From NCBI GenBank assembly GCA_963678065.2, contig CAXXVZ010000005.1:32001-96000 (forward strand): a stretch of 64,000 nucleotides of DNA, written 5' to 3'. Source of the DNA: Treponemataceae bacterium. GTDB lineage: Bacteria; Spirochaetota; Spirochaetia; Treponematales; Rectinemataceae. Made by a program: the position numbers and the translations under genes. Every line of letters begins with the position of its first letter. Positions within the stretch are counted from its first letter, which is position 1. Below, piece by piece: positions 34,999 through 38,474 of this stretch. The notes under the pieces are model-generated. The model searched no databases and was not told the DNA's origin. It saw only the letters and a program-made list of their open reading frames with translations.

Positions 34999-36093
34999 TT
35001 AGCCGTTCTTCTTCATAAAATCTTTCATGAAGTCGACGGAGACCGCTACGCTCTCGACCATGTTGGCGTTGTAGGTCGAGAAGCGGATGCCGCCCGTGGA
35101 GCGGTGGCCCTTCACGCCGACGATGCCGGCGGCCTTGGCATCCTTCACGAACTTGTCCTCGAGCTCTGGTGTCGCGAGGCGGAACACCACGTTCATCTGC
35201 GAGCGCGAATCTTTCGCGACCGGGGCGCGGTAGAATCCGCCGGATTCGTCGATCGCGCCGTAGATCAGCGCAGACTTCTCGTCGTTGATCTTCTTCATGG
35301 CCTCAAGCCCGCCCACCTTCTCGAGCCACTTGAGGGTCAGGCTGAGAACGTAGATCGAGAAACAGGGCGGCGTGTTGTACAGGGAGTTGTTCTCCGCGTG
35401 GGTGCGGTAGGACAGCATCGTCGGCAGTTTCGCCTGCTCCTGGGCCAGGTTGTAGAAGGAATCCTTCATCGCGACGACGGTGACGCCCGAGGGACCGAGG
35501 TTCTTCTGCGCTCCCGCGTAGATCATGGAGAACTTTTCCGCCGGGAAGGGGCGCGAGAAGATGTCGCTCGACATATCACAGACGAGCGGTACGTTTCCGA
35601 CTTCGGGCCAGTAGTGCCACTGGCTTCCGAAGAGGGTGTTGTTGCTCGTGAAGTGGGCGTACGTCGACGCGGGGTCGACGGCGATCTCGTCCTGGCGCAG
35701 GATGCGGGTAAAGGTTCCGTCAGGATTCTCCGTGCTCACCGAGTCGCAAGTCCCGAAGCGCTTGCCTTCCTTCAGGGCGTTCTTGGCCCAGGTCCCTGTG
35801 ACCAGGTAGCTGGCCTTGCGCCCGTCGAAGAGGTAGTTCATCGGAAGCATGAAGAACTGGGTCGAGGCGCCGCCCGTGAGGAAGAGAACCTTCCACTCCG
35901 GGCCCATTCCGGCGAGCTTGCGGAACAGCGTCTGGGCCTCGTTGTGCATCTCCTCGTACTCCTTGGAGCGGTGGGAGACCTCCATGACCGACATGCCGGT
36001 GCCCTTCCAGTCGAGCATTTCTTCCTGGGCAGCCTTGAGGACATCGAGGGGGATCGCCGCGGGGCCGGCGTTGAAGTTGATCACGCGTTTCAT
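34999..36093 (-). CDS. serC: Phosphoserine aminotransferase
   Basis: NFNAGPA, EVSHRS, GGASTQF, DMSSD, GAQKNLGPSG, NTPP, KGHRSTGGIR. Confidence 0.96.
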   Translation of the reverse strand: MKRVINFNAGPAAIPLDVLKAAQEEMLDWKGTGMSVMEVSHRSKEYEEMHNEAQTLFRKLAGMGPEWKVLFLTGGASTQFFMLPMNYLFDGRKASYLVTGTWAKNALKEGKRFGTCDSVSTENPDGTFTRILRQDEIAVDPASTYAHFTSNNTLFGSQWHYWPEVGNVPLVCDMSSDIFSRPFPAEKFSMIYAGAQKNLGPSGVTVVAMKDSFYNLAQEQAKLPTMLSYRTHAENNSLYNTPPCFSIYVLSLTLKWLEKVGGLEAMKKINDEKSALIYGAIDESGGFYRAPVAKDSRSQMNVVFRLATPELEDKFVKDAKAAGIVGVKGHRSTGGIRFSTYNANMVESVAVSVDFMKDFMKKNG

Positions 36094-36161
36094 GGGTATG
36101 CTCCTATAAAATGTCAACCGGGTGGTCGACACGAATCCGAAATTGCCCGGCTACGCCGGCA

Positions 36162-37250
36162 TCATGCGGTTATCCTCAGGGCGGCCCGCATGGAATCCGC
36201 CTTTTTGCTCAGTCGTTTATCGATCATGAGACTAGGATCGAAAGGCTCGTCAGCAGTCAACATGCACCAGATGATCCTGGAAATCCTTCGGGCGGTCGCG
36301 ATGATCGTTCTTCCCGTCCCTTTCTCGTGTCTCATTCTCGCGTAGCGTTCCATCAGTCGCCAGGATAACGTCTGCTTGCTTCTTCGCATCCCGAGCACCA
36401 GCTGGACCAATGCCGTCCGGAGTTCCTCGGGGCCACGCTTCGTGATCCGGCCGTAGTGCTCGGTGGTGTTCGAGCATTGGACCCATGGAACGAGGCCCGC
36501 GAAGGCGGAATAGTTCCTAAATGATTCGAAACGCCCGATGTCGTCCGTGAAGGCGCGGATCGTCCATGCCGTCACTTTGCCGCAGCCGGGAATCGTCTGG
36601 AGAAGTTCGACCGCTCGATCTTTTCCCGTCAGAGCCTCGAGCTCGCGTTCCACAATCTTGACGTTCTCTTCGAGCCGATCTATCGTTTCGAACAGCGGTT
36701 GGACCACGAGTCCGTTGTCCGCTCCTGCGAGGGTGTCCAGAATCTTCTGGCGCCCTCGCTTGCTTTGCAGACTGGCTTTGGAATCCTGCATCCCCAGCCC
36801 GATTAATAGCCCGTGAATCTGGTTCTTCACCGTCACGATAGTCCGAACCAATGTCGTACGAACCTTCAAGAGTCGTCGTAGCTGCTCACTCGCCTCGGAG
36901 CAGAGATGAGACTCAGGAAGCATGTCTTTCTCGAGAAACTCCGCGATGGTCGCGGCGTCGTGACGATCGGTCTTCTTCACCGATTCGTTGACGACTTTGA
37001 ACTTGAGCGTGTTGATCACTCTCACTTCGATGCCCTCTCGCTCCATCCTGTTTTTGAAGTACCTCGTATTGCCGGTCGACTCGACGCCCACCCGCACCGA
37101 CTGCCCTTCCTTTCGCCACACCCTGATTCGCGCCAAGAACGCTTCATATCCGTCCTCTGTCGTCAGGTACTTCCCGAAAAAACCTTCGCCCACGCGGGCG
37201 AACATCGTGAACTGCGTCTTGTGAAGATCAACGCCAACACTGATGCTCAT
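36162..37250 (-). CDS. IS110 family transposase/recombinase
   Basis: VGVDLHK, VESTG, KKTDRHDA (DEDD RuvC-like); TIPGCG, GLVPWVQCS, GRITKRGP..LR (Tnp20 domain). Confidence 0.95.
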   Translation of the reverse strand: MSISVGVDLHKTQFTMFARVGEGFFGKYLTTEDGYEAFLARIRVWRKEGQSVRVGVESTGNTRYFKNRMEREGIEVRVINTLKFKVVNESVKKTDRHDAATIAEFLEKDMLPESHLCSEASEQLRRLLKVRTTLVRTIVTVKNQIHGLLIGLGMQDSKASLQSKRGRQKILDTLAGADNGLVVQPLFETIDRLEENVKIVERELEALTGKDRAVELLQTIPGCGKVTAWTIRAFTDDIGRFESFRNYSAFAGLVPWVQCSNTTEHYGRITKRGPEELRTALVQLVLGMRRSKQTLSWRLMERYARMRHEKGTGRTIIATARRISRIIWCMLTADEPFDPSLMIDKRLSKKADSMRAALRITA

Positions 37251-37254
37251 ATCC

Positions 37255-37440
37255 TCTCCCCATCCGATATAGGTTCGATGCGGTGGATCGGGCCCATTCT
37301 CCTATTCGACCTCGCGGGTCATTGAATGATGCGGCTAGGCTCCTCATTCTCCTTACCGGCCTCGTAAGCCATAAACCATGACGAGCAATAGCCTTCCCGT
37401 ATCGGATCCCTCCGCTACAGGATACCCTCTTCACCTAGAA
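37255..37440 (-). ncRNA. Putative bridge/seek RNA of the IS110 element
   Basis: ~190-nt 5' non-coding end containing segments matching target (TAAGGAG, revcomp GAGCA) and donor junction (ATAGGAG, revcomp GAATGAT), each pair flanking a hairpin. Confidence 0.7.
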
Positions 37441-37466
37441 CCCGGTTGACGTTTTATCATTCCTCC

Positions 37467-38339
37467 TTAAATTCCTGAGTATTTCTTCATGCGGGCGACG
37501 ATGCTGTCGCCGAGGCGCAGGAGGTTCTCCTCCGTCGAGGCGCCGAGATGAGGGGTGAGGAGGACATGCGGGGCCGTCACGAGGGGCGATCCCTCAGGTG
37601 GCTCCTTGTAGAAGACGTCGGTCGCGTAGCCCGCGAGTTTCCCGGAGGCGAGGGCCGCCGCGATATCCTGCTCGACGACGACCTGACCGCGGCAGGTGTT
37701 CACGATGCGCACGCCGGCCTTCATCTTCGCGATGGCAGCCGCGCTGATCATGCCCTTCGTCTCGTCCGTCAGGGGCGTGTGCAGGCTGATGTAGTCGGAC
37801 CTGGCGAAGACTTCGTCCAGCGTCACCATCTCGGCGGCGTCGGAGCTCGCCACATACTTGTCGTAGGCTATGACCGTCATGCCGAATGCCCTGGCCCGCA
37901 CGGCGAGCTCGCGCGCGATCCTTCCGATGCCCACAAGACCGAGGGTCTTTCCGCCCAGCTCGGTCCGCTCGAGCTCCTTCTTGAGCCACTTGCCCTCTTT
38001 CATCGACGAGTCAGCCTCGGCGATGTGGTTCGGCATCGCGATCATGAGGGCGAAGGCCAGCTCCGCGACTGCCAGGCTCGAGGCCTCGGGAGTGTTGTCC
38101 ACCGCGATGTTCTTCGACTTCGCGTAGTCCACATCGATGGTGTCGACCCCGACGCCTCCGCGGATGATGTACTTGAGCGCAAAGGCCCTGTCCATCATCG
38201 CCTTGTCCACCTTGGTCTTGGACCGCACGATGATGACTTCCGCTTCCGGAACCCGTCCCATATCCTGAGTCACCTCGCCGAAGGGCGCGAGTCGTCCGGG
38301 AAGATCCGGCGCAAACGCGTCGGCCAACAGAATTACCAT
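37467..38339 (-). CDS. serA: D-3-phosphoglycerate dehydrogenase (short form, no ACT domain)
   Basis: VRSKTKV, RGGVGVDTID, GIGRIA, LHTPLT, NTCRG, TPHLGASTEE; adjacent to serC. Confidence 0.85.
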   Translation of the reverse strand: MVILLADAFAPDLPGRLAPFGEVTQDMGRVPEAEVIIVRSKTKVDKAMMDRAFALKYIIRGGVGVDTIDVDYAKSKNIAVDNTPEASSLAVAELAFALMIAMPNHIAEADSSMKEGKWLKKELERTELGGKTLGLVGIGRIARELAVRARAFGMTVIAYDKYVASSDAAEMVTLDEVFARSDYISLHTPLTDETKGMISAAAIAKMKAGVRIVNTCRGQVVVEQDIAAALASGKLAGYATDVFYKEPPEGSPLVTAPHVLLTPHLGASTEENLLRLGDSIVARMKKYSGI

Positions 38340-38474
38340 GTGTTCCTCCTTGAGCAGTCTATGCACCATCCGGACCGGGGTGCGCGCGAAGAGGTGTCCG
38401 TGATCCCGCCGGATCGCCCTCCGTTTTTCCCCGAACCGGGCTCTTCTGTCTCCGCTGTCCCTATCTCCGCTCGC

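Follow-up and report, generated by a model that had tools for sequence, protein, structure and literature searches.

An IS110-family element between serA and serC whose predicted bridge RNA may read translation-initiation sites

The 64,000-nucleotide stretch of a Treponemataceae bacterium analysed here (GenBank assembly GCA_963678065.2, contig CAXXVZ010000005.1, positions 32,001 to 96,000 of the forward strand; hereafter the window) carries an IS110-family element between serA and serC, which we read, with a probability of roughly 0.8, as a bridge recombinase element programmed against translation-initiation sites. In its predicted bridge RNA one target guide copies a Shine–Dalgarno (SD) sequence and the other begins with CAT, the complement of a start codon. 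Among distinct insertion sites of elements with such a CAT guide, ATG stands 4–9 nt past the junction at 84 of 89, as against 2 of 19 for elements whose guide lacks CAT. Judged from sequence, the target appears to be an SD followed at a variable, slipping distance by a start codon, and to occur at gene starts in general. A first-pass annotation of the window had proposed ribosome-binding site (RBS) motifs as recurrent targets; this agrees with the figures just given and with all 15 of the 15 copies in one relative genome (G041), but the proposal was incomplete in that it missed the cause, a bridge RNA reading SD and start codon together.

The element and its predicted bridge RNA

The element (Table 1) has the domains, catalytic residues and short core without target duplication of the IS110 family, together with a predicted RNA that covaries with its sites. 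Its recombinase scores above the cut-offs for PF01548, PF02371 and NF033542 (200 bits against a cut-off of 140 for the last), whereas the IS900-type profile NF051857 gives 34 bits against a cut-off of 180. S260 aligns with the serine loop of IS621 and ISCro4, similarity to the IS621 protein being distant (E about 1e-10), and the best plasmid matches outside the clade are mostly unnamed proteins of 28–33% identity. The recombinase carries the motif GLVPWVQCSN, in which SN is invariant within the clade, and its gene is flanked by 212 bp of non-coding DNA upstream and 61 bp downstream. Contigs of a public RNA run (X16) cover parts of the transposase, although contigs cannot show expression. In the predicted circle, the joined ends would place TTGACA (36117–36112) 17 nt from TAAAAC (37456–37451), and by analogy with the family this junction may act as a promoter.

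A bridge RNA with a target loop and a donor loop, both covarying with the DNA sites, is predicted in the upstream non-coding region. Folding an alignment of 46 sequences with RNAalifold recovered both loops, left CAT unpaired, and gave inner hairpins that were 100% paired with compensatory changes. When the non-coding region was folded as a single sequence, the signal was weak (z −1.6) and CAT was drawn into pairing with the AUG of the RNA itself, unlike in the alignment fold. An Rfam search of 36000–37600 returned no match at E<=1. The 5' guides end in TA and AA, not CT, and the guide positions opposite +1 and +2 are unpaired with the target (33% and 11%, respectively).

Table 1. Coordinates, within the window, of the element, the predicted parts of its RNA, the two target halves and the adjoining genes
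Feature	Position	Strand	Basis or remark
IS110-family element, 1,362 bp	36101..37462	-	junctions; identical second copy in C3; empty allele skipping exactly 1,362
DEDD recombinase, 362 aa	36162..37250	-	family profiles; D8, E57, D95, D98 and S260 invariant in 15 relatives
Left element end GAATGAT	37456..37462	-	donor half, predicted to be read by donor loop
Right element end ATAGGAG	36101..36107	-	donor half; new SD of serC
Left sub-terminal inverted repeat, 17 bp	37441..37457	-	16/17 match to right repeat
Right sub-terminal inverted repeat	36106..36122	-	contains -35 TTGACA
Predicted bridge RNA core	37289..37392	-	two internal loops, each closed by YCG/UGR motif plus inner hairpin
Target loop 5' guide CATGGTTTA	37372..37380	-	9 nt; initial CAT predicted to pair with coding-strand ATG
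Target loop 3' guide TAAGGAG	37349..37355	-	SD copy, 7 nt; predicted to pair with template strand; covaries with left flank
Donor loop 5' guide ATCATTC	37324..37330	-	reverse complement of left end
Donor loop 3' guide ATAGGAG	37299..37305	-	same as right end; nearly invariant in relatives, hence no covariation measure
Left target half TAAGGAG	37463..37469	-	serA stop overlapping original SD; final AG the presumed core (CT on other strand)
Right target half	36091..36100	-	7-nt spacer CATACCC plus serC ATG
serA-like short phosphoglycerate dehydrogenase, intact	37467..38339	-	ORF, profile matches and gene context
serC phosphoserine aminotransferase, intact, 364 aa	34999..36093	-	above two NCBIfam cut-offs
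Hybrid promoter-like site TTGACG-16-TAAATT	37446..37473	+	antisense into serA end; -35 from left repeat, -10 from host DNA

Guides and their targets

Collections of genomes, metagenomes and viruses supplied the relatives, together with a search of the whole class for the end motif (54 of 401 genomes matched). A transposase with 45% identity or more was present at 200 loci; 28 without a parsable guide were dropped and 172 kept, which after removal of duplicates and short flanks gave 108 distinct right and 100 distinct left flanks. Right-end matches without a transposase were not counted in these statistics, since the motif, with an SD inside it, can also match native RBSs.

In the CAT-guide elements the spacer before ATG is 4 nt at 2 sites, 5 at 16, 6 at 49, 7 at 10, 8 at 4 and 9 at 3, and the mode of 6 is the spacing at which CAT lies in register. 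A target register equal to the donor register (a 4-nt spacer, with a DNA bulge at most sites) was dropped, as the non-CAT elements pair at +3 to +9. Of the five misses, three have TTG, GTG and ATT respectively at a spacing of 5–6, one has a stuttered GAG ahead of an otherwise normal spacer, and one lies in the target loop of the element itself; a self-insertion of this kind is seen at the locus L266. Counting one site per guide pair, ATG is found at 42 of 47 sites with CAT and at 2 of 19 without.

Agreement between the 3' target guide and the left flank is 84–100% at positions −7 to −1 over 100 sites, where shuffled pairs give 30% at −7 and 47% at −6; it persists when each guide is represented by a single site (n=35, p=2e-4) and among CAT guides only (n=21, p=2e-4). 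Changes in the left end are tracked by the donor 5' guide (n=36, p=2e-4). With shifts of −1, 0 and +1 allowed, the non-CAT 5' guides match 4.89 of 7 positions of their own right flanks, and 3.87 after shuffling within the non-CAT set (n=18, p=2e-4). The targets of the non-CAT subclade (L277–L331) and of L046 are 8–10-nt tandem repeats, (ACACGGAG)n and (GCGCAAAG)n among them, addressed by at least 15 different guide pairs. Guide positions facing the bases after ATG showed no covariation (p 0.36 and 1.0).

It might be supposed that the RNA reads the SD only, the ATG being there because insertions at coding AAGGAG are purged and the intergenic remainder are mostly RBSs, with CAT retained for folding. 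CAT can indeed pair with the invariant AUG of the same RNA, sites deep in open reading frames (ORFs) are under-represented beyond what SD plus ATG would predict, and in a loose test on 57 empty sites some open frame ran across 14; a distant group of relatives also retains ATG without a full CAT. However, in this genome ATG stands at 4–9 nt after only 718 of 4,152 AAGGAG (17%) and 64 of 221 TAAGGAG (29%), and outside coding cores it stands at 5–7 nt after 264 of 1,071 AAGGAG (about a quarter), so that SD reading with purging of coding insertions does not yield 84–94%. Stated for the 5–7-nt range, the expectation at non-coding or edge AAGGAG and TAAGGAG is about 25–30%, and 75 of 89 were observed. 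Nor would SD reading account for the preference for ATG over GTG or TTG, which stands at 84:2 at insertion sites and at 251:48 at start-like sites of this genome (p=4e-5). Moreover, retargeted elements have lost CAT while the AUG side of the RNA is unchanged, their 5' guides match the new flanks, and the modal spacer tracks the guide register. We regard an SD-only guide as improbable.

Slightly less probable still is a guide that reads the SD and nearby bases while gene starts are found through a host cue, such as DNA that is open, A/T-rich or associated with ribosomes or RNA polymerase, with CAT pairing playing a minor part. The broad range of spacers (4–9 nt) would fit such a cue, as would the distant group that reads AT only, and the guide bases that face the spacer match at 45–63% at −2 to −4 and at chance at −1, values that may partly reflect base composition. 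Against it, close relatives with changed guides insert in G+C-rich tandem repeats where no gene starts, which argues that the protein has no fixed need for gene starts.

Several observations weigh against a guide that reads SD and start codon. At 4 of the 18 non-CAT sites the match is only 3 of 7; both copies in the present genome have a 7-nt spacer, off register; CAT could pair with the RNA's own AUG in 37 of 46 sequences; and no circle joint occurs among the contigs of four public runs, although contig sets cannot show absence. In the distant group (31–34% identity) the ATAGGAG end is followed by ATG in 18 of 19 cases although most guides read AT, one base further out, rather than ATG, so other factors contribute to the choice of ATG. 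As many as 221 of the 485 AAGGAG-ATG sites of this genome lie deep in ORFs, and at 75 of 82 insertions the reading frame that follows extends for 60 codons or reaches the edge of the locus; because insertions are thus mostly at real starts, selection or spacer matching must add to the guide. A single genome with crude ORF calls supplied the backgrounds, flanks from metagenomes may be chimeric (L262 and L263 share a left flank), and the relatives are kin rather than independent. Since the non-CAT elements amount to one subclade plus L046 and L309, the CAT/ATG contrast represents two or three independent changes, and the Fisher p-values overstate its significance.

The distant group, whose guide is shifted by one base, also has longer spacers, with a mean of 7.3 nt (n=14) against 6.1 (n=84; p=0.001), as the shifted register would lead one to expect, although a host difference in spacing may play a part; in Lentisphaeria flanks AGGAG occurs with ATG in 6 of 62 cases, too few to serve as a background of native spacers. 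A FastTree phylogeny of 96 proteins, with the distant group as root, puts the CAT guides at the base and the non-CAT guides in a nested position; one CAT subclade falls inside the non-CAT part, where its placement is poorly supported.

Insertion site and empty allele

On the minus strand serA ends ...GGA ATT TAA, and its stop (37469–37467) overlaps AGGAG (37467–37463). The element lies at the junction serA-TAAGGAG/CATACCC-ATG-serC, where the slash marks the point of insertion, and spans 37462–36101 with one core counted at the right end; its terminal letters ...CCCGGTTGACATTTTATAGGAG (also written TTGACATTTTATAGGAG) are followed by CATACCC and the ATG of serC (36093).

That an IS110 element sits exactly at the junction of the serA stop and SD, as the first-pass annotation held, is borne out by an empty allele identical to the reconstructed site in contigs of two of the four public runs, in which 36100 is joined to 37463, 1,362 letters are skipped and 5 letters fit both sides. 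In run X14 the allele has a depth of 18 and a shorter side of 186 letters and belongs to a strain with 7 differences per 601 serC bases; in run X5 the depth is 2.5 and the shorter side 36 letters. The joint was not found in the contigs of runs X1 and X16, and those of X1 contain the element with both filled junctions. Among the other serC loci of relatives, a transposase match within 1.5 kb was present at 0 of 29; serA is directly upstream of serC in 24 of the 29, and a stop/SD overlap like the local one occurs in 6 of the 24.

The empty allele carries a single AGGAG, and the doubled AGGAG of the filled site might be taken for a 5-bp target duplication. This was rejected, as the left junctions vary among relatives (TGGAG, AGAAG, CAGAG, CAAAG) while the right end hardly departs from ATAGGAG, and the right AGGAG is therefore the element's own end. 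The earlier claim that this end supplies the RBS of serC, with neither ORF broken, thus stands. No letters beyond AG are common to all left junctions and right ends, which would limit the core to those two (CT when read on the opposite strand, as in IS621). A one-off insertion with such a duplication, by chance or as an assembly artefact, could appeal to the 16,164 occurrences of AGGAG in the genome; it is already refuted by the empty allele and the guide statistics, with the element and its junctions in X1, the empty allele in X14, an element-encoded right AGGAG, RBS sites at both intact local copies and one relic end, and the uniform sites of G041, and we give it virtually no credence.

Two further parts of the first-pass annotation fared less well. 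It had placed the targets inside operons, yet where the left flank is 300 nt or longer (58 sites) an upstream stop lies within 30 nt at only 14, just past the junction at 6 and at 31–200 nt at 22, and 16 have none. It had also called them a safe harbour, which finds no support as stated: the upstream ORF end is altered at 6 of the 58 sites (those with the stop just past the junction), the serA–serC coupling is lost, and a hybrid antisense promoter-like site is formed. That site, a candidate promoter, matches the consensus at only 9 of 12 positions; the left-repeat TTGACG together with host DNA makes an outward promoter-like site at the C3 copy too, with TATCAT as its −10. A terminator scan found 7 candidates against 5.0 +/- 2.6 in shuffles and is uninformative on polarity.

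The serA ORF encodes a short D-2-hydroxyacid dehydrogenase. Its best match, phosphoglycerate dehydrogenase, is below the cut-off (291 against 454 bits), so that the name serA rests on this best match and on the conserved order DUF1015-serA-serC. Its own RBS, CAAGGAG-GAACAC-ATG (38339–38351, minus strand), is an in-register candidate target. A second serC paralogue (81%) lies at G000 C3:2306232-2307314, with no serA upstream within the stretch inspected.

Other copies and small elements

The collection of copies that the first-pass annotation had called for yielded one further identical copy in the same genome (C3:1736312-1738976), which likewise lies in an RBS: it stands at GATAAGGAG, followed across the junction by the spacer AAGGATC and the ATG of a 630-codon ORF. 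Both intact local copies and one relic end therefore sit at RBSs. The second copy is split in its non-coding region by an IS3-family element (L347, G000 C3:1736442-1737737; window equivalent 37340–37342), which is flanked by a GAG duplication, lies between the target and donor loops, and probably splits this copy's bridge RNA; the genome holds four matches to this IS3-family element, near-full or partial.

Related elements have also left two relics in the genome, a right end and a left end, each followed by a spacer and ATG. The left-end relic (L348, G000 C2:648137-648255) stops exactly at its own target-loop AAGGAG, after which come ATAAAAA and ATG; this resembles a mis-excision in which the DNA of the guide served as a junction, with an RBS nevertheless remaining. 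The genome also has four more remote IS110 transposase matches (25–31%), with other ends, at G000 C3:1150995, 1908266, 2347732 and 114341, two of them nested in apparent other insertion sequences.

Extra GAG units follow the right end at L037, L046, L277, L293, L295, L313 and L320, and 8 of 122 distinct flanks begin with GAG, which suggests three-base register slips in the GGAGGA junction. In genome G041 three mini-elements of 108–143 bp (L065, L066 and L072, about 1145–1287) start AGGAG/GAATGATAAAA and end TTATAGGAG, each with a full element inserted at its right end. Transposase-free, hairpin-rich elements of 151–165 bp are present in family f3 genomes (L189, L194, L197, L201, L207, L208, L210–L212, L216, L223, L224, L226 and L228), with the same right end, a left-end-like AGGAG..ATAAAA, and ATG at 5–8 nt after 11 of 14; G351 and G387 have no PF01548 match. 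These are possibly non-autonomous derivatives, or an unrelated repeat family with similar ends.

Discussion

There is reason to think that the element moves by the following route. Excision would give a circle whose joined ends, as in the family, would form a promoter for bridge RNA and recombinase. Comparison of the relatives shows two guides in the target loop. The 3' guide, a 7-nt SD copy ending in the AG core, would pair with the template strand, and the 9-nt 5' guide would pair through CAT with the coding-strand ATG, the register being exact at a GGAG-to-ATG distance of 6 nt. Next to the core two bases of the guide stay unpaired, and these may provide the slack for spacers of 5–9 nt. The donor loop would recognize the element ends and, because the donor guide and the right end are SD-like (ATAGGAG), a crossover at AG would preserve both the upstream stop and, for the downstream gene, an SD as far from the start codon as before. 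The element always has the orientation of the downstream gene. RBS targeting appears to be the ancestral state of the clade, from which some lineages rewrote both guides and moved to short tandem repeats.

A wider proposal, towards which we lean slightly, is that this is a widespread and old clade (in Spirochaetota, deltaproteobacterial and Lentisphaeria genomes and some viral contigs) whose guide RNA reads DNA as the ribosome reads mRNA, with an SD guide, an ATG 'anticodon' and a slack unpaired linker accepting 5–9-nt spacers; that it arose independently of IS900; and that it also mobilizes the transposase-free 150–165-bp elements. If so, it would be a natural case of bipartite, variable-spacer, RNA-guided recombination in which one guide addresses most gene starts of a genome, and the small elements would replace the SD and upstream context of host genes.

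Site choice of this kind is known from IS900; new here are the logic of the RNA, a register that slips, a co-directional arrangement and retargeting in nature. An explanation at the RNA level would be offered for insertion at translation starts, a preference of IS900 that was reported in 1997, before bridge RNAs were known; that report, by Doran, is titled 'IS900 targets translation initiation signals'. The predicted mode, with two half-sites at variable distance and a core unpaired by one guide, is unlike the contiguous 11–14-bp mode of IS621. It bears on how off-targets of bridge editors are predicted and on the design of insertions that fall just before a start codon and restore the SD, and the naturally reprogrammed relatives are a ready training set of guides and targets.

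With IS621 and ISCro4 the element shares a DEDD plus serine recombinase, a bridge RNA encoded in the long left end, with one internal loop for the target and another for the donor, a CT core (here on the opposite strand) and a junction promoter (here predicted) (Durrant 2024, PMC11208160; Hiraizumi 2024, PMC11208158), and its 7-nt right guide is like that of orthologues with an extended right target guide (extended RTG). Unlike IS621, it has sites read in reverse orientation relative to the element, 17-bp sub-terminal repeats, a 9-nt guide that leaves the core unpaired, half-sites at variable distance, and an RBS rather than a repetitive extragenic palindromic (REP) sequence as target. The short sub-terminal inverted repeats, leading bottom-strand guide and core paired by all four guides of the IS110 group (IS621 type) were not found in it. 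A member of the clade appears, under no ISfinder name, in the tree table of Durrant 2024 (PMC11208160).

The IS1111 group (ISEc11, ISKpn4, ISPa11; Siddiquee 2024, PMC11187229), in which the repeats measure 7–17 bp, is alike in its sub-terminal inverted repeats, its junction promoter (here predicted) and an RNA in which the top-strand match is 5' of the bottom-strand match. Unlike that group, the element has its non-coding region upstream rather than downstream of the transposase gene, SN rather than S(t)G in the GL-P----S(t)G motif, a simple two-loop RNA, and 362 aa against 330–350. Because the position of the non-coding region and the SG motif differ, it is not filed there, although a minority of elements, for example ISMtsp17, combine IS1111-type repeats and guide order with an upstream non-coding region (Siddiquee 2024, PMC11187229). 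No IS1111-group element with an RBS target appears in the portion of that literature compared.

IS900 of Mycobacterium avium subsp. paratuberculosis, with the target motif CATGNNNNNNTCTCCTT (PMC8141618), also belongs to the IS110 family; its target is the reverse complement of SD-N6-ATG, and genes are rarely disrupted by it. It differs in having no terminal repeats, a transposase of about 400 aa and, to judge from the antisense hed ORF that borrows a host RBS, an orientation opposite to the host gene, whereas the present element is co-directional; we infer an origin independent of IS900. The sections of PMC8141618 covered give no RNA-guide explanation of its choice of site. Likewise, a bridge RNA encoding an SD and an anti-start codon has no account in the portions of the full-text literature searched, which includes 10.64898/2026.10.21.760802, 10.1101/2025.10.25.684509, 10.64898/2026.03.19.712850, PMC4607514, PMC7823733 and PMC3196728, subscription papers and several supplements being outside its scope. 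In its mode of action the element would resemble IS621 (Durrant 2024; Hiraizumi 2024; Hiraizumi 2026), with repeats and a guide order of the IS1111 type.

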